Shown: in pieces, positions 19,345 through 53,290 of the stretch
How positions within the stretch are numbered: position 1 is the first letter of the stretch
Layout of the letters: each line of letters opens with the position of its first letter
Virus record (IMG/VR): IMGVR_UViG_3300024319_000005
Span: 1-64,000 of that record
Length of the DNA stretch: 64,000 bases
Origin: a virus
Reading direction: 5' to 3' (one strand)
The notes under the pieces: model-generated
What the model was told of the DNA's origin: nothing
The model's input: only the letters and a program-made list of their open reading frames with translations
Database searches by the model: none
Translations under genes and position numbers: made by a program

Positions 19345-19711
19345 CTGTAAATTCTGTTTTATTATTACTTAAAGAATCTCTAAGTTTGTAAATGTTATCT
19401 AATACTTCTTTGTTTTTAGCTAATTTAGTATAAGCTAAGTTTACTTTTTGATTTAATTGTTTTAGTTTTTCTTCAGATTTTAATATAGTGCTGTTTTTAT
19501 GTTTTATTACAGTAATAAGAACATCTATCCTAGATGTAACACTATCTTTATATATTGAGTGTTCTTTCTTTTCCTTAGTTAAGTTAGAATACAAAGGCTG
19601 CATATAAATATATATATAAATACAAGTGCCTATTGCAATTAAACATATTAAATTCCATAACCATTTAGCAGCTATATAAGGGATAGGTATTTTAATGTTG
19701 ACATTCTCCAT
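19274..19711 (-). CDS. Membrane-anchored coiled-coil protein (i-spanin-like)
   Basis: N-terminal TM followed by coiled coil; follows the endolysin-like gene. Confidence 0.5.
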   Translation of the reverse strand: MENVNIKIPIPYIAAKWLWNLICLIAIGTCIYIYIYMQPLYSNLTKEKKEHSIYKDSVTSRIDVLITVIKHKNSTILKSEEKLKQLNQKVNLAYTKLAKNKEVLDNIYKLRDSLSNNKTEFTDEQRKIWLNNEFYLSPNASDSNK

Positions 19712-20792
19712 GATATTCTGTGCTTTTTAATTGGGATCTTTTATCAAATACAACTAAGTTTCCTTTTCTAGTATCTATATGTATATGTGAGTTGTACAAT
19801 CCTATACCTGTAATACCAGAACTTTTAATAATTTTTATAATATAAGCTTTGTTAACTACATCACTAACAAAGTTCTCGTGCGCTATTCTACTAATAAAAG
19901 AAATATCAATAGCTCTACCAGCTAAATGCTGGCTATACTTTGCTCCTCCTGCTTTATCATTACATTTTCTGTATCTATATGAAGAGTTAATTAGTATAGA
20001 GCTTCCATAAACAGCTCTGAGCTTTTGTGCAAAAATTATAAGTTTATTATCAAGTCTATGTTTATTTAACCCTACACATTTAGAAAAGAATTCAGATATA
20101 TGAAAGTTATTAGTTATAAAATAGTTATCAGTTTTATTTATTTCTATGAATTTATTAGGACCAAAATTAAGACCAAAAAATATTCTTTCATCAAATGTCC
20201 AACCCATGTTAGCTCTATAAAAAGGAGCCATCATACTATTAGGGTCGTCGCTATGATTTAAACCAAAAATATGACCCATTTCATGAGCAGTAATATTGCT
20301 TATGTTTTTAATGTTTTTATAATAAATCATTAAACTATCAGGAGTATTTTTTCCTGGGGGCATGTCGTAGTTATCAAAAGTAATATGTTGTATCTTACTT
20401 GTATCACAATTGGGGTATGTAGCTCTTGCTAAAGTGCCATCTATCCCATCCATGTACTCGTATTTAATTACTAAATCTAATTTTTTTGAAGTACTAGAGC
20501 TTGGTAATTCTTGAACATATTTATTAGCAAGTATAGCTGTTTTTTTTATAGCTAAATCTATATCTTTTTTCACTAAATTAAAACCATCTACTGGAGACTG
20601 ATTTGAATGTTTATAAAATATAGTGTCTATTGCTTTAAAACTACACATTGCCTGTCTGAATTGGTCTTCAGATTCTATAGGGGAGTTATGTAGTACAGTT
20701 GCTACCGCCATCATTTGCCTGTGCTTTATACTTTGACCATTGCAACAGTAGGATAAAGCTATGCAAATAAATAAAAAAATAATATTTTTCAT
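19692..20792 (-). CDS. Matrixin (M10) metalloprotease fused to peptidase M15 endolysin domain, with signal peptide
   Basis: GTLARA...HEMGHIFGLNHS...SMMAP (metzincin motif with Met-turn), then SEF...NSSYR...SQHLAGRAID...HIHIDTR (M15). Confidence 0.85.
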   Translation of the reverse strand: MKNIIFLFICIALSYCCNGQSIKHRQMMAVATVLHNSPIESEDQFRQAMCSFKAIDTIFYKHSNQSPVDGFNLVKKDIDLAIKKTAILANKYVQELPSSSTSKKLDLVIKYEYMDGIDGTLARATYPNCDTSKIQHITFDNYDMPPGKNTPDSLMIYYKNIKNISNITAHEMGHIFGLNHSDDPNSMMAPFYRANMGWTFDERIFFGLNFGPNKFIEINKTDNYFITNNFHISEFFSKCVGLNKHRLDNKLIIFAQKLRAVYGSSILINSSYRYRKCNDKAGGAKYSQHLAGRAIDISFISRIAHENFVSDVVNKAYIIKIIKSSGITGIGLYNSHIHIDTRKGNLVVFDKRSQLKSTEYHGECQH

Positions 20793-20815: not shown

Positions 20816-22948
20816 TTAAAAATATTGAGTCCATACTATTTGTATTTCCTCTGTAGCAGAATCACAATTAGTTGCTGTTACTGTAAAGTCACGCATAGAA
20901 ATATTTGCACTATTACAACCCATAACAACACCAGTATTACCTATTTGTATATCAATTTCATACTCATCTTCGCTAAGTATAGTTGTTGATCCTACAGTAT
21001 CAGTTACAGTCCAAGTTACTGGAATGTCTGAGGTAATAACTGCATGCTCAATCTCAGGTGTACAATCCCCACTACCGGCTTTAAATCTGTAATCTTCACC
21101 TCTATTTCCAAAGCAAATAGGTTCGTCACATAAATCAGCAAGGTTAGTAATTGTTATAGTTGGAGTGACAGGTATACAACAATCTGCCTCTCTAAGGTAA
21201 ATGTTTCCACTATTGCTACCACTAGTTATACTATCTATAAAACCATTAAAATTATATATTTTTAAATAAATACCACTACTATCTGTTTCTATTACTTCTA
21301 TAGAAGCGGCAGCACTACATCCGTTAGCTAGTAAGTATGCTAATAATGCATCTTGATTAACTTGGTCAGTAATTGAAGATAAAGGTGCATAGTAGATTTC
21401 ATTTGTTCCTGCTATTGTTACTCCAAAGTTAGTTGCTGACTCTTCTATAAAAAACATTTGACAATCTACTGTAGCGTCAGTTATACAACATCCACAATTT
21501 TCATATTGAGTTTGAGTTATAGTTGTTACATACTGTTCTCCATTAGAATCAGTTTGTCCTGTAATAGTACAACCACTTGCTGATTCTATTGTATTAACTT
21601 GCCAGCTTAGTCCTATTAAATCTCCATCTGCAAAGTCACATATGTCTATTGGTATATCAAAATTGTTTACTGTAGTGTTACCATCAACCGTAAATGTTTG
21701 ATCAATATTTCCAGTAATATAAGATACATTATTTACATATACAGTATAATCTAAATCTATATCTACTGTAGTGTCTACACACTCACAAGAAGCATCTGTT
21801 AAACTTGTTATTCCTATATTTAAATTAGTACAAGTTAAAGTTTCAGGTACTCCTGAACCGCTAATTTGAAAGTTAATTGATGGATCACAACAGTCTTCAT
21901 TATCAAAAGTTAATATAGTAGGCTGCCCACAAGTAAATCCATTTGTTCCTGTTGGTGTCCACTCTACTTGAAACAATACTTCTGATCCATCTGTAGCATT
22001 CCAAGTAGTAGTAGTTTCTAAAGGTAAGAAAGGACCAGTAGATAGTAAATCTTTGTAAAATATTTGCAAAGTACTCCCTGGTAAATTACAATAAAAGGAA
22101 TCAGTAACCATTTCATATATTGCTGTTGTTCCTCCATTTTGTGTGTTAGTACCGTTACAAGCTGCAGATATCATATTTAGCAAACCACTAGGCATATTAT
22201 CATAAAGATTTAATGAAGTTTCACAAGCTTCTACAGTTTCACTATAATCACCTATAATAGGTGATATAATTAATTTTTGTGTTATTTCAACTCCACACCC
22301 TGGGTCATTATTAATAACCCATCTAGCTATAGTTAATTCTCCACAAGTTTGTTTATCATCTGCTATTCCATTAGTAGTAAGATTTCCTGGTATATTTAAT
22401 GTACTAAAATATAAAAAGAAAACTCGAAAAGATGATGAAGTATAAGCAAGAACTGACCCTGCAATAGGATATGATATTTCTATAGCCCCCCCTGGAGCTA
22501 TAGGTATAGTATTTCCATCGCACCCTCCAATAATAGTATCTAAATCTATATTTTGAGTTCCAAAATTACCACTGTCTACAAAACTACCATCAGAGTACAT
22601 CCAACTATAATCAGAATCTCCTTGTTCTGTTCCATCTCTACATACATATATATCTTCAGCAGGTCCAATCTCTGTAGATGTATCATATATTTCTATACTT
22701 GCTTCTACAGGAGCTGTACAATCCCCATTTTCTACTATATATTCAAAAGTATATATACCTGGAGTTAAACAACTAGAAAGAGTTGCATAAGTAAAAGTAT
22801 CCCCTGTATAGTCTACTGAGTCTAAACAACCCTGATCAGTTGAATCTATAGTAAAAGTTACACCTCCTGTAGGTTGAGATACTTGAGTCCAAGTACCTCC
22901 TGGAGTATAGCCAGGGTCTAATAAACTACTTAAACAAAATTGCGCCAT
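20816..22948 (-). CDS. Cys-rich Ig-like repeat structural protein (putative filament tip/cap)
   Basis: 710 aa with GGTW...PGIYTFEY repeats like flavobacterial surface adhesins; no signal peptide. Confidence 0.55.
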   Translation of the reverse strand: MAQFCLSSLLDPGYTPGGTWTQVSQPTGGVTFTIDSTDQGCLDSVDYTGDTFTYATLSSCLTPGIYTFEYIVENGDCTAPVEASIEIYDTSTEIGPAEDIYVCRDGTEQGDSDYSWMYSDGSFVDSGNFGTQNIDLDTIIGGCDGNTIPIAPGGAIEISYPIAGSVLAYTSSSFRVFFLYFSTLNIPGNLTTNGIADDKQTCGELTIARWVINNDPGCGVEITQKLIISPIIGDYSETVEACETSLNLYDNMPSGLLNMISAACNGTNTQNGGTTAIYEMVTDSFYCNLPGSTLQIFYKDLLSTGPFLPLETTTTWNATDGSEVLFQVEWTPTGTNGFTCGQPTILTFDNEDCCDPSINFQISGSGVPETLTCTNLNIGITSLTDASCECVDTTVDIDLDYTVYVNNVSYITGNIDQTFTVDGNTTVNNFDIPIDICDFADGDLIGLSWQVNTIESASGCTITGQTDSNGEQYVTTITQTQYENCGCCITDATVDCQMFFIEESATNFGVTIAGTNEIYYAPLSSITDQVNQDALLAYLLANGCSAAASIEVIETDSSGIYLKIYNFNGFIDSITSGSNSGNIYLREADCCIPVTPTITITNLADLCDEPICFGNRGEDYRFKAGSGDCTPEIEHAVITSDIPVTWTVTDTVGSTTILSEDEYEIDIQIGNTGVVMGCNSANISMRDFTVTATNCDSATEEIQIVWTQYF

Positions 22949-22980
22949 TGTATTTTTTTTATTATTAAATAATTAAACTG

Positions 22981-23036
22981 AAAAAAATAGTTATATCCTT
23001 AGAGTAAGTTACGTTATACTCTAAGGATATAAACTA
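22981..23036 (-). terminator. Intrinsic terminator
   Basis: Inverted repeat tatatccttagagta / tactctaaggatata plus T7 on the minus strand. Confidence 0.8.
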
Positions 23037-23047
23037 ATGTGTAACTT

Positions 23048-23770
23048 TTAGTTACAAACTGCTAATGAAGTTGCAGTACCTGCTACTAATGCTGCTGTAA
23101 TTTCAAGAATAAATGAAATTACTTGTGTACAATCAGCACAAGATTCATCTACAGTATGGTGCCCACCAGCAACTGATAATGTGTAAGTTACAGTAAAACT
23201 ACCAACTACGGCAGGAGTAGTAAAAGTAATAACACCTGTTGATTGATCTAATGTACCTGGGTTGCCTCCTATTGCCCATGTACCTCCAGATATATAATTA
23301 CCTATTTCGGCAGTAAGATCATAATCTACAGGAAGAGTTGCTTCACAAAAAGTAAGATCCGAAGTAGGTGCTGTCATATTTGGACTATCAACTACTTCTA
23401 TTTCAAAACAAGTAGTATCTCCACATTCAGTTGGAGTAATTAACTCACCATCTTCTGGATTATTATCTCCTACAATATATGCAAAACCATAAAACCCTGC
23501 TGATGCTCCTCCAAAATCAATAGTTTCTTCATCAGGTTCTAGTTTTATTTGAGGATTTACACTAAAGAGTGTACCAGGAATTTCAGTATAGGGGTTACTA
23601 GTATCTATTGGAGCTATTGCAAAGTGATCTTGAATTCCAAAACAAGTACTATCTTCACCATTTGCAGGTACTTGACTACCTGTACTAGTACTCACGTATC
23701 CTAAGTATACAAAATACCCTCCTGTAGATTGATTAGTTAATTGATCATTTAAATTTATTGAACAAGCCAT
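23048..23770 (-). CDS. Cys-rich two-domain Ig-like structural protein (putative polymerising shaft subunit)
   Basis: 240 aa; starts MACSINL, ends AGTATSLAVCN. Confidence 0.55.
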   Translation of the reverse strand: MACSINLNDQLTNQSTGGYFVYLGYVSTSTGSQVPANGEDSTCFGIQDHFAIAPIDTSNPYTEIPGTLFSVNPQIKLEPDEETIDFGGASAGFYGFAYIVGDNNPEDGELITPTECGDTTCFEIEVVDSPNMTAPTSDLTFCEATLPVDYDLTAEIGNYISGGTWAIGGNPGTLDQSTGVITFTTPAVVGSFTVTYTLSVAGGHHTVDESCADCTQVISFILEITAALVAGTATSLAVCN

Positions 23771-23803
23771 TTTAATTTATTTTATTATTAATTTTTAAAA
23801 AAG

Positions 23804-26800
23804 TTAAGAACATACCATTTGAGAACTTCCATTCCCTGCAGATACTGCTTCTGTAATTATTATTGTTATTGTTTCTGCTGCCCCTCCGCAAGATACACAA
23901 CCGTCAAAAATTGGGTATATATTATTTGGAGTAGAAACAGAATATGTAAATGTATATGTGCCAACTGGCATACTATCTGTATTAAATGTAGCTACGTCAC
24001 CTAAAATAAATAATCCTGGGTTACAGTTATTAAAAGCTATTGTGTAATCTCCACCTGCTGACCATACTCCACCTGCGTCTTCTCCTACAAGTAAATCTCT
24101 TAGTATAAGACACTCTGGCTCTATTTCACAAACAAATTGTGTACCTATATCATTACCTGCAGTTCCTGCTGATACAACTTGTACTACTGTCTGTGAAATA
24201 GAAGTACAACCGTCTACAGTAACTTTATTACTAAAAAAGTAAAATCCTACAGCTGCTCCTTCAAAGGTATAAGATGGACCAGAAATATCTCCTGGTGTTA
24301 AAGTAGGTTCTACACCTCCCCAGCCTCCTGTACCAGGAGTACCTATAGCTACTGTTGAAAATCCATCATAACAGAAAATACCTATAACGCTAGTGTTAGG
24401 TGTAAACATGTCAGGATAAACATCTACTACACAAGCTCCATCGTTACAAACAGCTCCTGGTTGAGGTACTCCTGATCCTGGTAAAGGGGTTACAGTAATT
24501 GTTATTGTAGCATCTGTATTACATGCTGAACAAGTACCATCTGTTCCTGTTACAGTAGAAGTAAATGTAAATACCCATTGTCCTGGTACTGTAGGATTAA
24601 AGTCTCCTGTAGTTAAATTATAATCAGGAATTCCTTCTCCCGCAAGATTTTCACTTATTAATACTAAAGATGTAAAATTATTGTCTAAACAATTAGAACC
24701 TCCGTTTATTTCATTAAAAATATTAAACTCAGGATCTGTATTACACTTTACTATTGTAGTATCTGTTATTACACAAGAAGCTTGATATATGTTTACTTCA
24801 AAGTCTACTTCTTTAGGACAAGCATCTCCGTAGAAAGCTCTAAATAAGTAAGTACCTAATGGTGCTTTACCGTTATCCCAAAGTGCAATACCTTCTGGTA
24901 AAAATGACCCTGCATTAAGCAGCATCTCAGATCCATTTATGTTTAAAAATATTGGAGTATAAGGTGCAGTTAATAGCTGTATTTTACTACCTGCAGGCAA
25001 TCCCATTTCAGTATATAAATCATACTCACACCCTGTAGTTGCAGTATTATTAACAATAACAGGATTTGTAGTACAGCTTGCATCTAATGCAGGATCTGGA
25101 CCATATGAGCAGTATACTAAGCATTGTGTAGGTACATCAACAGGTTCTTCTTGTATGTCTACTGTAAGTATAAAAGTATTACTACATCCTGTTTCATTGT
25201 ATATACCTGGGTTAGTTATGTTATATCTAAAGCTATAAGCTCCTGGAGTAACATCTGCAATTATAGTTACACCGTCAGGATTTAGTACATTAGTTTGATT
25301 TAAATCTGTCCAAGTACCTCCAGTTACATTAGCTAATGTATTTAGATTAATAGTATTAGCATCTGTAACACATATACTAGTGTCTAAATCTACAGATTGC
25401 TCTGAAGCAATAACTTCTATATTAACTGTAGTAAATGCATTACAAGGTCCTGACTCTCCAAATTGAAAAGTATAAATACCTGCATTATTAAATACAACAT
25501 TAGGATTACCTATAATATCTCCTACAATAAACTCTGGTGAATTTAAAGTTCCTGGTATATCTGTAACTTCAGTAGTAAATCCTATAAATGACCAAGGTAA
25601 TAGTTCTTCTGATGTTACTAAACTGTTAAGATCTACTACATCATTTAAACAAATAGATATATTAGAAGTTGGTAAGTTAGCATCTGCTACTGTTATAATT
25701 ACATCTGCTTGGTTAGACTCTACTCCTGCTTCATTTCTTAATTTGTATTTAAGTACAGTTGTACCTACAAATCCTCCTGCTATAAAGTTAATTGAATTTC
25801 CGTTAAGTAATGTTTGTACATTAGGATATTGAGTTATTATTAACTCTGTAAATTGACCTGAATCATTTGCTGTTATATCAATGTATCCAGAACTACCATC
25901 AGAAAGCATACATACTTCATTGTCTACTGCTACTGGAGTACTGCCACATTGTGTACCTTGAAATTCAAGTCTACCTGTAGCTAATACACCATCTATTATA
26001 AGAGAGTAGTTAACAAACTCTACGTTTACTAAACCTCCACTATAAGTGTATAGTACTTCTCTATTAATAGTTAAATTAAGCTCTCCGTGTGGAGTTAACA
26101 TATTTGTGCTAGTAACTAAAGTTTGACCTAAGCTTGGTATAAAAGTAAATGAAGTCCAATCTACATTTCCTTCTACTAAATCTTCTAAGTTAATACTTAA
26201 ATTAGATAAACAAGCATCTTCACCGTCTCCTCTGTTAGAAGCTACAGATCTAAAGTTATCTCTATCTATACAATCTTGACATCCAAACGTGTGGTTGTAA
26301 GGTATTATATTAGGTATAACAGTACACTGTATAGGTTGTAGACAAAGTGTAAAGTATGTAGTATACCCTGCACAATCTTTAGCTTTCATTGGTACAACTA
26401 TAATGTTGTTACTTAAAGATATCTGGTATGTAGATATTTTAAATGAGTCTTCTGTAGTAGTTATAACTAAACCATTTTGGACTTGTAAAAACTCTACTGT
26501 AGAATAATCTATAGGCTTACTACAAGGTGTACCTAAGCTTATCGGTGAAGTAGTATAACTTGTATTTATAGCTCTTGGTTGGCATACTATGTCAAAGTTA
26601 TATTTAACTTCGTTATTAATACATATTTCAACATCTATAGTATCTTCTACTGAACATCCGTATTTATTAGTAGCTATTACTTTTAAAGGAGTAGATGTAG
26701 TAGTAATAAATGCACCATCTACATATTCAAGTTCTACTCTATCGTTTATTGATGTAGTAGTAAATATTTGAGAATCTACTATCCATTCGTAAGTAATACC

Positions 26801-27127
26801 AGCTTCATTAGTAGGAGCTTTATATGCTATAGTACATCCATTACAGTCTTCTAAAGGAGATATTCCTCCTTGAGTAAACTGTAGTTCTGCACATACATCT
26901 TCAAACACACTGTCAATTGTAGTAATACAACCGTCAGCATCTACTATCTTTAAACCTATTTCGTTAAAGTTAAGTAAGCATTCGTTGTCACAAAAATCAA
27001 AAGTTGCAGTAATAGTATTATCTAATACTACACTAGAGATAAGTGTAACACAATCAGGTAAAATCCACTCGTGAGTGAATGCTCCTGTTAAATTTTCTAA
27101 TTCATAAACTTTTGTGATATTAATCAT
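23804..27127 (-). CDS. Cys-rich multi-Ig-repeat structural protein (putative filament base)
   Basis: 1107 aa with tandem xC...L..L...GG.W...G.YTF.Y...C repeats and a cadherin-like PVAVDN...LKYKL segment. Confidence 0.6.
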   Translation of the reverse strand: MINITKVYELENLTGAFTHEWILPDCVTLISSVVLDNTITATFDFCDNECLLNFNEIGLKIVDADGCITTIDSVFEDVCAELQFTQGGISPLEDCNGCTIAYKAPTNEAGITYEWIVDSQIFTTTSINDRVELEYVDGAFITTTSTPLKVIATNKYGCSVEDTIDVEICINNEVKYNFDIVCQPRAINTSYTTSPISLGTPCSKPIDYSTVEFLQVQNGLVITTTEDSFKISTYQISLSNNIIVVPMKAKDCAGYTTYFTLCLQPIQCTVIPNIIPYNHTFGCQDCIDRDNFRSVASNRGDGEDACLSNLSINLEDLVEGNVDWTSFTFIPSLGQTLVTSTNMLTPHGELNLTINREVLYTYSGGLVNVEFVNYSLIIDGVLATGRLEFQGTQCGSTPVAVDNEVCMLSDGSSGYIDITANDSGQFTELIITQYPNVQTLLNGNSINFIAGGFVGTTVLKYKLRNEAGVESNQADVIITVADANLPTSNISICLNDVVDLNSLVTSEELLPWSFIGFTTEVTDIPGTLNSPEFIVGDIIGNPNVVFNNAGIYTFQFGESGPCNAFTTVNIEVIASEQSVDLDTSICVTDANTINLNTLANVTGGTWTDLNQTNVLNPDGVTIIADVTPGAYSFRYNITNPGIYNETGCSNTFILTVDIQEEPVDVPTQCLVYCSYGPDPALDASCTTNPVIVNNTATTGCEYDLYTEMGLPAGSKIQLLTAPYTPIFLNINGSEMLLNAGSFLPEGIALWDNGKAPLGTYLFRAFYGDACPKEVDFEVNIYQASCVITDTTIVKCNTDPEFNIFNEINGGSNCLDNNFTSLVLISENLAGEGIPDYNLTTGDFNPTVPGQWVFTFTSTVTGTDGTCSACNTDATITITVTPLPGSGVPQPGAVCNDGACVVDVYPDMFTPNTSVIGIFCYDGFSTVAIGTPGTGGWGGVEPTLTPGDISGPSYTFEGAAVGFYFFSNKVTVDGCTSISQTVVQVVSAGTAGNDIGTQFVCEIEPECLILRDLLVGEDAGGVWSAGGDYTIAFNNCNPGLFILGDVATFNTDSMPVGTYTFTYSVSTPNNIYPIFDGCVSCGGAAETITIIITEAVSAGNGSSQMVCS

Positions 27128-27362
27128 TGCACTTATTTGAAATTTCTTTGATTGTAATTTTATTCTTTATAGTTCTTTTTGTCTTTACTTCTACAGGACA
27201 TAAACTATCAACTTCTATTTTTTTACATTCTATGCCTGCACAGTTACTATTTTCTAACCAATGCTTAATGTACTTTGAGTTGTTGTTAGTACACTCCATA
27301 AGGAATTTTTTCTTCTTTATGTTGTCTACCCTATCTTTTATTATACTAGCAGTTACAGTCAT
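27120..27362 (-). CDS. Small Cys-containing hypothetical protein
   Basis: 80 aa; overlaps both neighbours. Confidence 0.55.
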   Translation of the reverse strand: MTVTASIIKDRVDNIKKKKFLMECTNNNSKYIKHWLENSNCAGIECKKIEVDSLCPVEVKTKRTIKNKITIKEISNKCND

Positions 27363-28842
27363 CGTTTACAAGATTATAGGATTTTAAAATATTATTAAGC
27401 TCTTGATATAATACACATGCAGACTCACACTCGCAGTCTATACACTCGTGTATTGACTTTAGAGCTTCATATAACAATATAGCTTCTTCTAGTTTATCTA
27501 AATCTGTTAACTTAGCTATTTTACATTGTAAGTCTAAATCTACAAATACGCAGTAAGAATCTGTTATAACTTGAGTTTGGGTTTCTGTAGTTAATGTAAA
27601 GTTATATACTCCATTTGTAATAATACCCAAGTACTCTGGCTTTAATCTTAATCCATTACCTACAAACTCTATTAAATCTGCGTTGTACTCTCCTTCAAAG
27701 TAATTTAACTGATCACATTGGAAATAATAATTTTCATTATCTACTTCTAGTTTAAAAGGTACAAAGTCAATGTCTTTAAACGTAAGAGCTATTAGATTGT
27801 CTTCTAGTATAGCTTCTACAGACCCTGTAGTTAATAGTGCAGTTATAGAACTAGCTATTGTTAGTGCATCTATTTTTAAAGAAGATGTAAGTATAGGGCT
27901 TGTAAAACTATTTGTATTATTATACCCAGTAAGAGAGTTTATAAACCCTGTTGTAGGTATTTTTACAGTATAATTACATGATGTAATATCTTCTGCATAT
28001 CCTATGCAATTAGGAAAAGACCCTGTAGTAGTAGTGTTAATACTATACTTAACATATAAGATAGGGTTATCTGTTCCATTAATAATTAAATCATTTCCTT
28101 CATATTCAAATGAATATCTAGTATCATTTAAAAACTCTATTAACCCTACTTGTGCAGTTTCAATAGAAGCTGTATTAAATATAGTAGGAGGAGTATATGT
28201 ACCATTAGCTGTAACAAAAGAAGATATTGCTACATTAGCAGGAAGTATAAACTTATTTTTATTACATTTAATTCCTAAAAAACACTCAGCAGTTACATCT
28301 ACATAACATGTTTCATTATTAGCTAAAATAAAACTTTCAAATACTACGTTAGTAGGTAAGTTACTAATTTTAATTTCTACTTTTAAAAACCCACTTGTAC
28401 TTAACTCAGCATTTATTACTGTATTAGCTATAATACCTTTATTAGTAAAGTAAGAGTCAATATCTGTTTTTAATAAAGCTACATCACTTTCATTTGTCAT
28501 AAGGTATGACTTTGAAAGAATGTTTGTAGATTCACCATCTATAAATAGTTTAACTTCTACTACATTACTATAGTAAACTGATAAAGGAGTAGATTCACAG
28601 TTATCTGTAACTTTACCGCCTGACCCTGGAGTAGGTGAACAACTAGATTGTTCATCATAGTTTTGGTAACTTGCAACGTATATACAAGTTGGGTCAAACT
28701 CAAGGTTAAACTTCTGTGAAGCAATAGGAGTACAACAGTTTTTCTGTCCTTCTATACTCATAGACAATAACTCTTTAGAGTTAAATATCTTAGAGACGTA
28801 CTCATTTTCAATTTCAATATAATTTGATGTGTAATTTAACAT
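27346..28842 (-). CDS. Structural protein (possible tail hub/fibre adaptor)
   Basis: 498 aa with GVYNFTLT, a helical Cys-rich C-terminus and a terminal CNC. Confidence 0.4.
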   Translation of the reverse strand: MLNYTSNYIEIENEYVSKIFNSKELLSMSIEGQKNCCTPIASQKFNLEFDPTCIYVASYQNYDEQSSCSPTPGSGGKVTDNCESTPLSVYYSNVVEVKLFIDGESTNILSKSYLMTNESDVALLKTDIDSYFTNKGIIANTVINAELSTSGFLKVEIKISNLPTNVVFESFILANNETCYVDVTAECFLGIKCNKNKFILPANVAISSFVTANGTYTPPTIFNTASIETAQVGLIEFLNDTRYSFEYEGNDLIINGTDNPILYVKYSINTTTTGSFPNCIGYAEDITSCNYTVKIPTTGFINSLTGYNNTNSFTSPILTSSLKIDALTIASSITALLTTGSVEAILEDNLIALTFKDIDFVPFKLEVDNENYYFQCDQLNYFEGEYNADLIEFVGNGLRLKPEYLGIITNGVYNFTLTTETQTQVITDSYCVFVDLDLQCKIAKLTDLDKLEEAILLYEALKSIHECIDCECESACVLYQELNNILKSYNLVNDDCNC

Positions 28843-28888
28843 ACTACTTTTTTAATAGTTTATACTATAACTTGTTTTAATCAAAAGG

Positions 28889-31159
28889 CTATATACAGCC
28901 TTCTGATTTTATTTCTAAATTCCAAACATTTGTTGCACACGGATTACCTTTTATAGTAGCTGTTGCTGTATCTACTCCATTTATATAAGAAATTGGTATA
29001 TTTGCTACAACAGCGTCTGGTAATATTAATGAAGTGTATATAATTCCGTTACATTCAAAAGAATCTTCACTAGTACTTATATAAGGCATAACTGCAGACT
29101 CTCCAGTATGGTAAATAACATTACCATTGTACTCTATTACTAACCCATCAGGGACAGAAGCTGCAAAAAATGTTAATTTAATATTAGAAGATTCTCCTAC
29201 TTCTATATTAAACTGTGACGATGATCTTATTCCTCCAGGTCCTATTTGATAATATAATGTACTTGAACCTGTTTCTCCTATATTACAAGGTATCGGAGTA
29301 GTAGTAAATGTTAAGCTATTACAACTAATGTTACTACCTAAATCTGAATCTATTATTTCTATTGTATAAGTTCCTGCTATAAATGGTATAGTTTCATCTG
29401 ATGCATATGTAGTTGCTGCATCATAAAAAGTACCCATTGCTACTTTTATAGTTTGACCTTCTGCATTTTCTGCTGGGTTTAAATCTTCATCTAAAAATTG
29501 TAAAACGTAGTTATCTACGTCTACATTATTTTCTTGTAAAGTTTCCCAAGTTAATTTTCCAGGTACTGTAGCATCTGTATTAAAAGTTATATTGTTGTCT
29601 ATACAGAGATCACAAGAAGATACATTAAAGTTTACTTCTCCATTTACTGTAATATTTCCTGAAACATTAGTAGCTGTATATGCTATAGTACCACTAAATT
29701 CGTAATTATTACTTACTTCTATTTTAAATCCAACAGTAGGAATAATATCTACTACAGTTAATCCAGGGTATAATTCTATATCACTTACTGGATTTTCTAT
29801 AGGTATATTATCAATGTGTGTTATTGATAGCCCATTGTAAGCAGGAAAATCAGTAGCTAATACTGCTAAAATTCCTGAAGTAGTGTTACATACTAACTCA
29901 TAGGTAGTTGGATTTGATACTGGAGTTCCTGTTATACAAAACTGCAAAGTTGCAGTATTTACTTGATTATCATTATTTGTTATACTGTAAGATACTTGTT
30001 CATTTAAATCACTTACATAACCATTAAATGATTGTATTTCAATAACCCCATTTGTTACATATTTAATAGTTAAATTATTATTTATTGCTATTGAAAGGTT
30101 ATCTATTACTGATACACCATTAATGTGAGAAATTGCTTCTCCATTACCTAAAGAATCATTACCTAATAAATTAAGTATAAATGTTTCTCCTGATGTAATG
30201 CAATCTTCTACAATATCATTAATTGCTACAGGTATAGTAAATACTTCTGTAGGTAGGTCAGATAAATCAGTTCCTATAGGGCTATTAACTGTAAATGTAT
30301 AACTAGAACCATTGCTAGAAAACGAAGTGTTTATTCCGTATAATTCTAAGTTATTAACTATTTCAGTAGGAGTTGTCATATTAATTGACCCACCATACTC
30401 TATAGGAAATATTACTCTATCAAATACTAATTCATTTACATCAAAGAAATCAATAGTGCCTAATTCTACATCATAAGTAGTTTCTACAAATTCTACTAAA
30501 GATATATCAGATGCAGTTACTTCTGCTACTATACCTAGTAATCCAAATTGAGTAACTATATTAGCTAATGAATTAACTTGTACTACAGCTCCTCCGTAAG
30601 ATGTTAAATCTATAGAGTTATAAACAGCACTATCAAATGGCGTGTCAACTAAATTGTAAGAAAATTGTACTATAGGATCTGATGATATTTCTATATTAGC
30701 AACTGGACCAGTGTACTGTACAAAAGAAATACCACTAGCAGTTACATTTGTTGTTGCGCCTGTTAGTTCTTCTATTCTTGTTTTTAAAGCATCTAAAGAA
30801 TATATAAACTCTATTGGTTCTCCTCCGTAAAATGCTAAATTAAACCTAGTTTGAGTTGTAATACTAGTACTTGCATTAGCAGCATTAACAAAAATAATAG
30901 CAGGATCTAACGTAGAAATTATGTCAGTTGCTACTGTAGTTGTGTTTAGTATTGTTATTTGATTATTTATCATTTTAACTGCTATTCCTAAAATAGATAA
31001 AGCAGCTATTACTTCTGCATCAGAATTTACAGTAGTAAAAGTACTACCCCCATAAGGGGATAGATCAATATAGTCAAAAGAACTATATACTCCACCAAAA
31101 TCAACACCATTAGGGTTTAAGATAGAGATTGAATTAAAACATTTAAATTCTGTTTGCAT
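28889..31159 (-). CDS. Beta-rich structural protein with cadherin/Ig-like domains
   Basis: 756 aa. PVAIND...NLLGND...SYSIT cadherin-like pattern; N-terminal IDL.xYGG repeats. Confidence 0.55.
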   Translation of the reverse strand: MQTEFKCFNSISILNPNGVDFGGVYSSFDYIDLSPYGGSTFTTVNSDAEVIAALSILGIAVKMINNQITILNTTTVATDIISTLDPAIIFVNAANASTSITTQTRFNLAFYGGEPIEFIYSLDALKTRIEELTGATTNVTASGISFVQYTGPVANIEISSDPIVQFSYNLVDTPFDSAVYNSIDLTSYGGAVVQVNSLANIVTQFGLLGIVAEVTASDISLVEFVETTYDVELGTIDFFDVNELVFDRVIFPIEYGGSINMTTPTEIVNNLELYGINTSFSSNGSSYTFTVNSPIGTDLSDLPTEVFTIPVAINDIVEDCITSGETFILNLLGNDSLGNGEAISHINGVSVIDNLSIAINNNLTIKYVTNGVIEIQSFNGYVSDLNEQVSYSITNNDNQVNTATLQFCITGTPVSNPTTYELVCNTTSGILAVLATDFPAYNGLSITHIDNIPIENPVSDIELYPGLTVVDIIPTVGFKIEVSNNYEFSGTIAYTATNVSGNITVNGEVNFNVSSCDLCIDNNITFNTDATVPGKLTWETLQENNVDVDNYVLQFLDEDLNPAENAEGQTIKVAMGTFYDAATTYASDETIPFIAGTYTIEIIDSDLGSNISCNSLTFTTTPIPCNIGETGSSTLYYQIGPGGIRSSSQFNIEVGESSNIKLTFFAASVPDGLVIEYNGNVIYHTGESAVMPYISTSEDSFECNGIIYTSLILPDAVVANIPISYINGVDTATATIKGNPCATNVWNLEIKSEGCI

Positions 31160-49305: not shown

Positions 49306-51894
49306 TTAATTAGTTTCCGATTTAGATTTGGAAGTTGCAATCCTTTCTTTAGACTCAATGTCCTTTTCTTTTAGAACTTTTTCATTCTGAAGTTTAGATT
49401 CTTTAATATCCATATCTCTTTCTTTAATGTTTAATTCTCTAGTTTTAATGTCAGCGTCTTGCCCTAATTTAAGCACTTCCATATAATCAGGTACTCCATC
49501 ATTATCAGCATCTTTATCTTCAGCTCTAGCTGTGTTATTCATGGCAGCTATCTTTTCACTAGATGCATTACGCATTCCCATTAACTGTACTTCATGAGCT
49601 TGTGAATCTTCAACTTGCTCTTTTTGCATTTGTGCCATTTTTTCTTGTGACTCCATACTAGCTTGTTGCTGTGCTTGCGCTCTTTCTTGTTGCTTTTGTA
49701 CTTCTACTTGAATTAACTTATGAGTTTCTTCAGCTGATTGACCTGACGTAATTGATTTTAATAACGTAGATACTGCAGCCATTCCTTGTGGATTCTGCGA
49801 AAACGCTTGAGAGTTTTGCTTCATATAGTTTTGATACTCAATATTGTTTCCAGTATTAGTAACAAATACCATTGTGTTTAGCATTTCTACAGATTTATGG
49901 CTTATCTTAAATAATTCTCTAGTTCCATCTTCAAGTAGATACTCTAATGAGTGTTCTTCTTCATCTTCAAGTAATACTCTTTCTGCAAAAGTTCTAAAGT
50001 TAATTAAATAATCATTAAATACATCTGCCCATATTTGAGAGTGTGCAAAAAACAAAGGCTCTGTAATATGGTGAGACTGTGCAATTGCTTGTCTATTATC
50101 AGCCACATTACTTCCTGAACTAAATGCTGCTTGTCTTTGTGGGCTAATACCCATCGCCATAGACATTTCTCTTTCTAGCAACTCTAGTAATTGTTGTAGT
50201 AGATATATTTCGTTAGCTGTTGATAACATCATCCCATGCCCTCCAGGTGTTCTTTGGGGATTTGGTAAGCCAGACACTCCAACTTGCGACCCTGAGTAAA
50301 AGTTTTTACCTAAGTACCTTTGGTATACTAATGCAACCTTTAGTGGGTCATTTATTGTTTCTCCATCTACATCTTTACCTAGTGATTCTGGTATTTGGTC
50401 TATGTCTATGTTTTGTACATACCCTTCGTATTTTGATAACTCTCTATTTTGTATATTTTTAATAAATAAATATTGCAAGTATAACGGCAATGCTCTTTCA
50501 AACATAGACACAGAAGCTGCGTTTCTAGCAGTTAATACTATACCTTTGGTAGACAATGAAAAATTAGAAAATGGATTTTCTAAATTAGTTACTTGATAAG
50601 GTACTTCTCTATACTTTACAAATTTGTTAGAGTCTAATCTAGTTACTTCATACTTACGTGGAACCCATAACGGCTCTACTGAGTATTCTGAATCTTCATC
50701 CATCCACACAAACTTATGTGTCTTATGTCCAAATTTGTTTGTAAACTTAACTTTTTCTGCAGTTTTAGGTATATCAAAATCGTTTCTAACTAGTAATGTT
50801 ACTTTTTCTCCTAATTCATTAATATAAGACATAAAGTATACAGGCTTAAACGCTTTAAACTCAAATCGAGTTCTAGTTACTAACTGATCATCTCTATGTC
50901 CTGTTGTTTGATAAAGCCCATCAGTCTTTTCTCTTTTACCTCTAGCATCGTCATAAAAATCTTCTAGTATAGAATAGTCTTTTTCTGTGTTCTGTATATT
51001 CCTAGATCCTACCCCTAAACTATTACGTTTATCTCTAATTGATGCATTGATAAAAGAATAATCTGCTATTTCTTCATCACTAAGTACGTCTATATATTCT
51101 TCTATAGCTTGTGCTGGTGTAATAGTATCTATATGTGCAATCCAATCTCCTTTGTGTATTCTAGGTTCATTAGGTGATTTATGAAACTTAGTATTCATTG
51201 GGTTCCACACTTCTACCATAGGTGCTCCATGTTTCCAGCCAGAGTGAATAAAGCATCTATCATTTATAATAAGATCTGCTATTGTATCTAGCTCTTTGGC
51301 TTTAGTGTCTTGAGTAGCTTTACAGAACTTAAGTGCATGTGAGTAAAATATTTCCCACTCAGAGCTAAAGTTTTTTGCATTAATATCTTCAGGCTGCTCT
51401 TGTGTAGTAAGCTCTTGGATCATTTGATCTATCTCTGTAGGCTTCATTCCAGCCATCTTACCTTGCATTTCCTGTATCTTTATAGCTACCTTTTCCTCAA
51501 CCGAGGCTGTAAGTGCAGCTAAAAGCTTTTCATTCTTATCTTTTATTGCTTTAGCAGATAAGATCATTACTTTAAAGTCTTCTACCCTCTTAAGCTTCTC
51601 TCCTTTTAATATGTTAACTAGGTTATGTAGTTTTGGATAAGATATTAAATCTTCTTCTACATTAAAGTCGGTATATACACCTAGTGGGTTACATATTTTC
51701 TTAGTTTCTTCTTTTATACTACTAAGGTCACCGTTATATATTTGGTAATTTTTATGTAATCTATCATAGTCATCTACATAACTATCTTTATAGGGAACAC
51801 AATATTCCATATAGTCTACATACCAGTCTTTAGTTTTCTTAGAGTCTGGTACTTTTAAGTTTAACGGTATTTCCGTATTTTTAAATGCCTTCAT
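49306..51894 (-). CDS. Portal protein
   Basis: 862 aa with YPKL..LVN.L.GE, MGISPQRQ, Gln-rich crown and DADNDGVPD; synteny. Confidence 0.88.
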   Translation of the reverse strand: MKAFKNTEIPLNLKVPDSKKTKDWYVDYMEYCVPYKDSYVDDYDRLHKNYQIYNGDLSSIKEETKKICNPLGVYTDFNVEEDLISYPKLHNLVNILKGEKLKRVEDFKVMILSAKAIKDKNEKLLAALTASVEEKVAIKIQEMQGKMAGMKPTEIDQMIQELTTQEQPEDINAKNFSSEWEIFYSHALKFCKATQDTKAKELDTIADLIINDRCFIHSGWKHGAPMVEVWNPMNTKFHKSPNEPRIHKGDWIAHIDTITPAQAIEEYIDVLSDEEIADYSFINASIRDKRNSLGVGSRNIQNTEKDYSILEDFYDDARGKREKTDGLYQTTGHRDDQLVTRTRFEFKAFKPVYFMSYINELGEKVTLLVRNDFDIPKTAEKVKFTNKFGHKTHKFVWMDEDSEYSVEPLWVPRKYEVTRLDSNKFVKYREVPYQVTNLENPFSNFSLSTKGIVLTARNAASVSMFERALPLYLQYLFIKNIQNRELSKYEGYVQNIDIDQIPESLGKDVDGETINDPLKVALVYQRYLGKNFYSGSQVGVSGLPNPQRTPGGHGMMLSTANEIYLLQQLLELLEREMSMAMGISPQRQAAFSSGSNVADNRQAIAQSHHITEPLFFAHSQIWADVFNDYLINFRTFAERVLLEDEEEHSLEYLLEDGTRELFKISHKSVEMLNTMVFVTNTGNNIEYQNYMKQNSQAFSQNPQGMAAVSTLLKSITSGQSAEETHKLIQVEVQKQQERAQAQQQASMESQEKMAQMQKEQVEDSQAHEVQLMGMRNASSEKIAAMNNTARAEDKDADNDGVPDYMEVLKLGQDADIKTRELNIKERDMDIKESKLQNEKVLKEKDIESKERIATSKSKSETN

Positions 51895-53290
51895 TATTTA
51901 TTATATAATTTGTGTTTAGGAGTAGCTCATATGATGCAAATGCATTTTTTAAAGATTGTACTATTACTCGTGTTGGATCTATAATACCTTCTTCTAATAA
52001 GTTACATGCCTTTTTGGTTAAAACGTTAATTTCTTCTACAGTCTGTTCTAATTCAGCATTACTTTTAATTTGATATGCAGGTGCAAAGCCTATATCTTCG
52101 ATTAGAGAGCCTTTTGCAGCCTCTGCTAGGGCTATACCTCCCCCCTTAACATATCCTCCCTCTATGGCAGCCTGTACGGCTCCTAGGGCATCTTCTATCC
52201 TATCGTATTCTTCCTGTCTGTTCTTTTCGGTTGCACCTCCTACATAAATAATAGCAGTAGAGCCTCTTAACTTATTTATTCTAATCTCAGCAAATCTTTT
52301 TTCGTGGTCTTCTATATACCCATCAAACGTTGCTTCTACTTCCGCTATTCTTTTTTCTATACCTTCTTTACTTTCTGTAAAAATAGTAAATGCTACTGGA
52401 GTTATAATAATCTTATCAACCAACCCTTGCTCATTACGTAGTGCTTCTATATCTCTATAATTCTCTACCATATTTCTACCCCAACCTGGAGCTTTAACTA
52501 AACAAGCTTTTAGTCCTTTAGTCATGTTACCGTAAACAGTAGATATAACTGCAGGAGAAAATCCTGGAGAAATAATTACTAATGGTGCATTTAATTTATT
52601 AGCGTGCTCTATAGCTTGTATGTATAAGGATGGATCAGACGATTTGTTTTCATCGATAACAACTAAAGCGTTTTCTAGGTTACAGTACCCATTACGTTGA
52701 TTCTTAAACTTTTCAGAGATATACCCTGTGTTACCAATAAATTCTACACCACTTGCTACTTCGTAGTAAGTCTCAATAGACTCTTCATCTTCTTCTAGTG
52801 TTACTCTAGACTCTAGACCTACTTGCTCGTATACTGTCTTTAGTATTTTTCCTACTTCTTTAGAGTTACCTGACGTAGATGCAATTGCCTCTAGTTCATC
52901 TAGTGTAGTAAGTTCTTTTGAGCTTTCTAGAACTTTATCTATTACTGTTGCTATTTCTGTTTGCAATGTAGTTACATACTCTCTTGTATTACTAGGGATT
53001 TCCCTATTAGCCATTGCTTTTAATAATACTGACGTTGATGTAGTACCATCACCACATTCTTCTACTGTTTTCTGAGCTGAGTTAATTACTAACTGAGCAC
53101 CTATATCTTCTATAGGGTTTCTTAACTTTATTTCTCTTGCTACTGATACTCCATCTTTAGTAAATCTAGAATATCCATTTCTGTTAATTAAAACGTATTT
53201 ACCGTGAGCACCCATTGTTGAGGATACTACATCGGCAGCCTTAGACAAGCCTACTAATACTTCTTTTTTTGTGTCTATGATTCTGGTCAT
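51881..53290 (-). CDS. groEL: Phage GroEL-like chaperonin
   Basis: STMGAHG, TKDGVSVA, GDGTTS, KAPGWG, EDAL.A..AA..GG...GGG and GIIDP motifs. Confidence 0.95.
   Translation of the reverse strand: MTRIIDTKKEVLVGLSKAADVVSSTMGAHGKYVLINRNGYSRFTKDGVSVAREIKLRNPIEDIGAQLVINSAQKTVEECGDGTTSTSVLLKAMANREIPSNTREYVTTLQTEIATVIDKVLESSKELTTLDELEAIASTSGNSKEVGKILKTVYEQVGLESRVTLEEDEESIETYYEVASGVEFIGNTGYISEKFKNQRNGYCNLENALVVIDENKSSDPSLYIQAIEHANKLNAPLVIISPGFSPAVISTVYGNMTKGLKACLVKAPGWGRNMVENYRDIEALRNEQGLVDKIIITPVAFTIFTESKEGIEKRIAEVEATFDGYIEDHEKRFAEIRINKLRGSTAIIYVGGATEKNRQEEYDRIEDALGAVQAAIEGGYVKGGGIALAEAAKGSLIEDIGFAPAYQIKSNAELEQTVEEINVLTKKACNLLEEGIIDPTRVIVQSLKNAFASYELLLNTNYIINNEGI

Follow-up and report, generated by a model that had tools for sequence, protein, structure and literature searches.

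Three adjacent genes of an uncultured marine virus appear to encode one virion appendage whose pieces are joined by donor-strand complementation, in which a neighbor's strand completes an immunoglobulin-like (Ig-like) domain that lacks one. The genes lie in a stretch of 64,000 nucleotides (the window), positions 1 to 64,000 of IMG/VR virus record IMGVR_UViG_3300024319_000005, and encode proteins of 1107, 240, and 710 amino acids (aa). According to our model, each gene boundary sits in the turn of the first beta-hairpin (strands A and B) of an Ig/PKD-like domain; a boundary there would therefore leave the upstream protein ending in an orphan A strand, or tail (AG..S..VC-x), and the downstream protein beginning with a domain that lacks that strand, or socket. 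The orphan strand would slot between the first and last strands of domain 1 of the next protein, rebuilding the hairpin in trans, and cysteines at the junction would probably staple the joint after the particle reaches oxidizing seawater. The 1107-aa protein would start the chain because it has a tail and no socket, and the 710-aa protein would end it because it has a socket and no tail. With both ends, the 240-aa protein would add onto itself, giving a beads-on-a-string fiber of the form 1107-(240)n-710, with n of 1 or more. We consider it likely that the three proteins are linked by strand complementation, in whatever stoichiometry; that the resulting fiber contains a self-adding 240-aa unit is a more tentative proposal, which we place a little short of an even call.

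The ends of the proteins provide the first line of evidence. An earlier note, made from the letters of the window, had described three open reading frames (ORFs) on the minus strand and quoted their termini, and our ORF check returned them exactly: the 240-aa protein begins MACSINLNDQL, and the 710-aa protein begins MAQFCLSSLL and ends ...IVWTQYF, with no tail. The note had also held that each repeat inside the 1107-aa protein starts with a short strand ending in cysteine, which is true of the last two internal (cis) junctions, the only ones with a sharp AG...VC motif; earlier repeats are looser. One of these two, the AVCN-DG-ACVVDV junction that had been placed at 24422-24460, falls inside the segment we measured at residues 883-903, and is also kept at three related loci (L001, L002, and L005). 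When all ORFs of the 99-kb genome were checked, the tail motif ended only the 1107- and 240-aa ORFs, and tails and sockets were equal in number. Domain 2 and tail of the 240-aa protein match the last domain and tail of the 1107-aa protein with 32% identity over 91 aa (E 1e-6), and MAFFT placed the C termini of the 1107 family across the entire 240 family. A further point in the note was the likeness of the 240-aa tail (..AVCN) to the cis strand preceding a GFY-type domain. The likeness is real, but we dropped it as an argument for specificity, since the 1107 and 240 families share a single tail type (..QAVCA and ..LAVCE, both found in the 1107 family, and ..LAVCN) and asparagine often occurs in subfamilies that have the other type of head.

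The cut points recur in all relatives found, a pattern that, as far as sequence comparison goes, is confirmed not to be chance. The 240-aa protein has 11 close homologs (235-262 aa, 34-83% identical to it); all of them end AG...S[LI]AVCN, and 9 begin M-[AP]-C. A profile search of 1.8 billion representatives with the 240 family gave 68 hits, about 45 of which are clusters of small proteins (196-273 aa, 23-83% identity) that nearly all begin M-x-C-x-[IV]-x-L and end AG.....VC-x. The large hits are adhesins of the Bacteroidota type IX secretion system (T9SS), which have a signal peptide and a CHU_C sorting domain and in which the repeat occurs many times without interruption; that the split repeat has a continuous form in these proteins supports a jointed fiber. 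The seven proteins of the 1107 family (1090-1163 aa) all stop at the same tail, and no fused homolog of the split genes was present among proteins of 608-1938 aa. The cut point of the 710 family is kept in six proteins, its N terminus being shared with five homologs, L001, and L005, and C-terminal lengths behind the conserved head vary (535, 561, 605, or 700-710 aa in total). Genomic context was read for five loci among the homologs. The order giant, small, cap, with the same ends, was found in L001/L008, L004, L005/L006, and L002, and each of five contexts contained exactly one small gene. Homologous loci thus retain the split point, as the earlier note had expected.

Conservation within the 240 family is highest where the model places the joint. 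Its three most conserved 11-residue windows are the tail and, within the modeled socket, strands F and G of domain 1; in domain 2, the equivalent cis strands (A and G) reach only average conservation. The tail is near-invariant, with a consensus share of 0.88 versus 0.61 overall. Six cysteines are conserved (C3, C116, C142, C211, C214, and C239), and all six lie in the modeled interface. Two others, C43 and C121, appear and vanish together, and one homolog (P0017) has neither C3 nor C211. Disulfides between subunits had been suggested from the sequence alone, and the clustering of conserved cysteines at the modeled junction agrees with this; which residues pair is a tentative prediction from geometry that would link C142 to C116' and C239 to C214' (or C211') between subunits and C3 to C211 between domains.

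Covariation points in the same direction. It was computed as mutual information with average product correction from about 41 effective sequences. Of the 30 top pairs for the tail, 14 fall in the domain-1 socket of its own protein, versus 5.9 expected; the tail ranks first among 100 sliding windows, with windows within domain 2 giving 1-9. The value observed was reached by 2 of 200 row permutations, a control that ignores phylogeny. These values are suggestive of a tail that co-varies with its own domain-1 socket and not with adjoining domain 2, and they favor a homotypic tail-socket contact.

Structure prediction bears on both halves of the proposed joint. The AlphaFold 2 (AF2) monomer model of the 240-aa protein, built on a 45-row alignment, has a predicted local distance difference test score (pLDDT) of 92.7 and a predicted template modeling score (pTM) of 0.83. 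Its secondary structure agrees with the earlier claim that the N-terminal domain lacks a first strand: domain 2 has an A strand at residues 139-142 ending in C142, a B strand at 149-151, and a short helix at 152-155, and domain 1 opens directly with the equivalents of that B strand and helix (4-6 and 7-10), with nothing ahead of them. Residues 226-240 are coil in the monomer and do not fold back as a strand; a fold-back within the chain is what the note had named as a possible refutation. A two-copy model, run with a custom 45-row alignment and three controls, reached an ipSAE interface score of 0.66, against 0.00 for the best control, and is graded as supporting binding; among proteins of solved structure, 20 of 30 same-chain pairs and 1 of 23 single chains reach the mark for that grade, counts that hold only roughly with a custom alignment. 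Runs share at least 97% of contacts, with a partner pLDDT of at least 86. As had been predicted for this pair, the tail of one copy occupies domain 1 of the other, and the interface is nonreciprocal. On the donor side, the contacts come from residues 225-240 (the tail) and 142-145 (the A-B turn of domain 2); on the acceptor side, they come from residues 3, 5, 10-15, 34-39, 86-91, 98-101, and 112-130 of domain 1 and, on the near face of domain 2, from residues 200-214. Tail residues 231-235 pair with acceptor residues 15-10 and tail residues 235-240 with acceptor residues 122-129, so that the tail runs antiparallel to the first strand (residues 3-15) and parallel to the last (122-129). In the model, then, the tail is the inner strand that re-forms the cut hairpin, and a contact that is one-sided can in principle propagate. 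Searching the PDB and viral libraries by fold returned nothing beyond generic matches to tandem Ig, cadherin, and PKD domains (best Foldseek E 1e-3); domain 2 aligned to cadherin EC, PKD, and phage Ig-like domains with VIA-align Z scores of 7-8.3 (cadherin-23: Z 8.3, root mean square deviation 2.9 Å over 85 residues), and domain 1 was barely covered.

A terminator-like hairpin with a U run follows the 240-aa gene and recurs in L005. The spacer that holds it is 95% identical in L004/L005, against only 62-65% identity for the 240-aa protein of these loci, and the hairpin fits with lower expression of the cap than of the shaft, without being proof of it. In its fullest form, the model would describe a chaperone-free, disulfide-stapled filament of variable length on a crAss-like virion, in which the 1107-aa protein nucleates, the 240-aa protein self-polymerizes, the 710-aa protein caps, and the ratio of shaft to cap expression, set through the conserved terminator, determines length. 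We hold this complete version to be possible and rather more doubtful than likely, and regard the interpretation in the earlier note as partly supported.

Several considerations weigh against a self-adding fiber. The evidence is wholly computational. Structure models tend to complete domains known from continuous repeats, and the score of 0.66 therefore shows complementarity, not assembly. An AF2 fold of residues 880-1107 of the 1107-aa protein, the spacer, and the 240-aa protein as one readthrough product was uninformative, with a pLDDT below 50 for the 1107 part on a shallow alignment. The covariation has a base of about 41 effective sequences and a permutation control blind to phylogeny. 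A protein that polymerizes on its own would have to be restrained in the cytoplasm, and no such control was identified. A location on the virion is inferred from gene position rather than from proteomics. In L001, where the spacer is 11 nucleotides (nt), no terminator lies between the small and cap genes. Finally, the gene order is colinear with a single ancestral fiber, and a 1:1:1 chain fits it equally well.

That fixed chain is the alternative that survives best. The same complementation would link the 1107-aa protein to the 240-aa protein and the latter to the 710-aa protein, once each, and the plug and socket would be a universal joint for exchanging distal modules by recombination. Colinearity with the continuous repeat array, a variable cap length behind a conserved head, one small gene in each of five contexts, a common tail type in the 1107 and 240 families, and the missing terminator of L001 are all in its favor. 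It leaves unexplained, however, why the 240-aa tail co-varies with its own protein's socket and why a homotypic interface is confidently modeled, and it gives no reason why about 45 diverged clusters should keep a two-domain adaptor in a gene of its own. On balance we consider a fixed chain unlikely, while recognizing how much of the locus it accommodates.

A second alternative, to which we give somewhat less credence, is that no strand is donated at all. The genes would end and begin near domain borders, and the tail would be a docking peptide for the tail hub, a chaperone, or a host receptor, or else a flexible linker. A tail that is coil in the monomer model would suit such a role, and computational evidence from models biased toward complete known folds could mislead in just this way. 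But domain 1 is without the strand that domain 2 and the continuous repeats possess, and what is cut is a hairpin, not the border between two domains. Conservation and covariation also link the tail, the socket, and the junction cysteines, the two-copy controls scored 0.00, and such ends occur in the genome only on these ORFs, with as many tails as sockets. Synthesis as one polypeptide by readthrough, frameshifting, stop codon reassignment, or splicing is close to refuted: although the three ORFs share one frame in the window, the 33- and 99-nt spacers hold 3 and 6 in-frame stops, mostly TAA, as the earlier note had argued; readthrough is excluded because the L001 ORFs lie in different frames (spacers of 13 and 11 nt), and the second junction of L005 is also out of frame; every small homolog starts at Met and stops at the tail, and proteins of 608-1938 aa included no fused homolog. 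Alternative starts are impossible, with just two and nine sense codons between the last stop and each ATG.

Donor-strand complementation is a textbook route to pili in bacteria and archaea. The closest mechanism to the one proposed here is that of the type V pili of Bacteroidota (FimA/Mfa1), where a missing N-terminal strand makes a groove and a neighbor's C-terminal strand fills it (PMC4789730). As is proposed for the phage proteins, these subunits combine an absent N-terminal strand with a C-terminal donor, assemble head to tail, and include tip and base subunits, and their host phylum is probably that of the phage. In type V pili, however, a protease acting outside the cell cleaves the N-terminal strand, once made, from a lipoprotein precursor, whereas the phage gene simply begins after the strand. 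The phage proteins also differ in having no signal peptide or lipobox (the N termini MAC.., MAQFC.., and MINITK.. are not signal peptides, and no lipobox, leader, or T9SS sorting domain is present), in their generic Ig/PKD-like domains, in being virus encoded, and in a proposed cytoplasmic assembly. As for membership in the FimA/Mfa families, there was no Pfam hit, and fold searches listed the generic Ig, cadherin, and PKD domains, with domain 1 barely covered. Chaperone-usher pili (Fim/Pap) likewise complete an incomplete Ig-like subunit with a neighbor's strand, and their initiator, shaft, and terminator subunits differ in the end they carry, as they would in the proposed phage chain. There, the C-terminal G strand is missing and the donor is N-terminal, whereas in the modeled phage joint the A strand is missing and the donor is C-terminal. 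They also require a periplasmic chaperone and an usher, neither of which was recognized among the genes of the window, where the neighbors are phage structural and lysis genes.

Other systems share single elements of the proposal. TasA (PMC9674648) and archaeal cannulae (bioRxiv 10.1101/2024.12.30.630787) self-assemble by strand donation without a machine, as proposed for the phage proteins, but they are cellular, secreted matrix or surface filaments with unrelated folds, and with an N-terminal donor in TasA, not parts of virus particles. The T9SS adhesins (Ig_7 / K319L-PKD, CHU_C) have the phage repeat with its AG..d..vC junction motif (profile E down to 2e-18, 8-16 stretches per protein; 5-16 stretches in the hits of the 240-family profile). 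They are made as unbroken chains of 900-3750 aa in which the A-B hairpin is never cut, and they have a signal peptide and a sorting domain, both absent from the phage proteins. Several gene products stand in series in one appendage in the long tail fiber of T4 (gp34-37). In crAss001, gp22 occurs with further fiber proteins, the flexible fibers are unresolved, and tail parts are stabilized by disulfides (PMC10172136). The phage set resembles these fibers in its end-to-end gene products, and disulfide-stabilized virion parts are known in crassviruses; the known fibers are trimeric, with joints formed by dedicated terminal domains, and a split-Ig joint is not described there. Classical cadherins exchange the A strand of an Ig-like domain in strand-swap dimers, as proposed here, and domain 2 resembles cadherin EC; in cadherins two complete domains trade strands with each other, neither of them lacks one, and the chain does not grow. 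A literature search found no report of donor-strand complementation building a phage or virus-particle appendage.

Coordinates of the three genes, their ends and junctions, and the spacer features are collected in Table 1. The parent virus record is 99,222 bp long and was found in seawater metagenomes. Upstream of the three genes lie genes for a terminase, a GroEL-like protein, a portal, a major capsid protein, and tail-fiber-like giants, with a peptidase/endolysin gene downstream, so the block occupies a late structural region between tail-fiber-like and lysis genes. PHROGs matched the portal and terminase. The major capsid protein resembles those of FpV4 and crAss001-like phages, with 23% identity over 84% of its length; the virus thus belongs, distantly, with the Crassvirales, and the crAss-like setting assumed in the earlier note holds. 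Neither Pfam nor PHROGs has a family for the 1107-, 240-, or 710-aa protein, and a collection of deposited phages gave no nucleotide or protein match.

Table 1. Positions of the three genes and of their proposed joint elements in the window
Feature	Position	Strand	Description
1107-aa multi-Ig-like protein	27127..23804	minus	ORF; proposed proximal (base) piece, without free acceptor head
240-aa protein	23770..23048	minus	ORF; carries tail and socket
710-aa protein	22948..20816	minus	ORF; head MAQFCLSSLLDPGY..GGTW at B-strand position, no tail; proposed distal (cap/tip) piece
Internal (cis) junction, 1107-aa residues 883-903	24419..24481	minus	A strand ...PGAVCN, turn DGA, then C and B strand of GFY-type domain
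Internal (cis) junction, 1107-aa residues 990-1013	24089..24160	minus	AGNDIGTQFVC, turn EIEPE, then CLILRDLL of GG-W-type domain
C-terminal donor tail of 1107-aa protein (proposed)	23807..23839	minus	AGNGSSQMVCS; AG.GSSQ[MA]VC-x in 7 lineages
240-aa domain 1 (residues 1-128), proposed socket	23387..23770	minus	Ig-like body from B-strand position, without strand A
240-aa domain 2 (residues 129-225)	23096..23386	minus	Complete Ig/cadherin/PKD-like domain; own A strand E139-142 ending C142
240-aa tail (residues 226-240)	23051..23095	minus	...AGTATSLAVCN; proposed donor strand
33-nt spacer between 1107- and 240-aa genes	23771..23803	minus	In-frame TAA stops; readthrough residues identical in L004, L005
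Terminator-like hairpin after 240-aa gene	22981..23036	minus	15-bp stem and U run; -23.9 kcal/mol, z -5.9

Some observations on the locus stand apart from the question of the joint. The readthrough residues of the first spacer (23771-23806 of the window, 5965-6000 of L004/L005) are unchanged even though the 240-aa protein is 62-65% identical, and a promoter or a translation signal of the small gene may lie in these 33 nt. RNA contigs confined to the 240-aa gene (23041-23776) have mean word depths of 33, 22.6, and 20.9 in three metatranscriptome libraries, each from a different study; neighboring contigs of the same phage have depths of about 0.5-11, and the depth of a contig is no basis for ranking genes. 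In another contig from an RNA library (X16, depth 4.9), position 23796 runs through three other letters straight into 22954, so that the whole 240-aa gene is missing and the 1107 stop stands about 20 nt ahead of the 710 start. Natural variation or a library artifact could account for this form; a pattern search of viral contigs found no such 240-less junction. On a divergent 3.7-kb contig (L009, 1596-3710), a small protein is followed after 6 nt by a head-first protein, MCIVNLNDTLSG.., and is preceded by small membrane and coiled-coil genes, with no tail-bearing giant directly upstream. The donor for that socket would be either encoded elsewhere or the protein's own tail. Scans for loci of the sister subfamily found nothing, and the sole hit of a genome-collection scan (L010) was spurious, lying in a glycosyltransferase region.

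Neighboring genes include two for Cys-rich proteins of 756 and 498 aa (27346-31159) upstream, syntenic with the block in L001, L002, and L005. Neither has a family in Pfam or PHROGs, their ends are C-x-C or ..GCI, and both may also belong to the appendage formed by the three proteins. Next to the 710-aa gene, a 366-aa protein (19692-20792) with a hydrophobic N terminus combines a matrixin-like M10 metalloprotease domain with an endolysin-type M15 peptidase domain, an unusual lysis enzyme, and is followed by two small ORFs for membrane or coiled-coil proteins. The GroEL-like chaperonin gene (469 aa, 51881-53290; PHROG 5725, E 7e-78), between terminase and portal, could be relevant to the folding of large Ig-repeat proteins.

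If the joint exists as modeled, phage fibers would have a new type of connection, encoded just by the position at which a gene is cut. It would allow long or length-adjustable adhesive filaments to be built cheaply from a 0.7-kb gene, and it would act as a universal plug and socket permitting receptor-binding tips to be swapped. The unresolved flexible fibers of crAss-like phages would also find an explanation. The signature of the small proteins (an M-x-C start and an AG.....VC-N end) is itself searchable and identifies a family of unannotated metagenomic proteins. Should the 240-aa protein polymerize, the roughly 45 small M-x-C...VC-N proteins would be viral pilins, a class widespread among marine phages.

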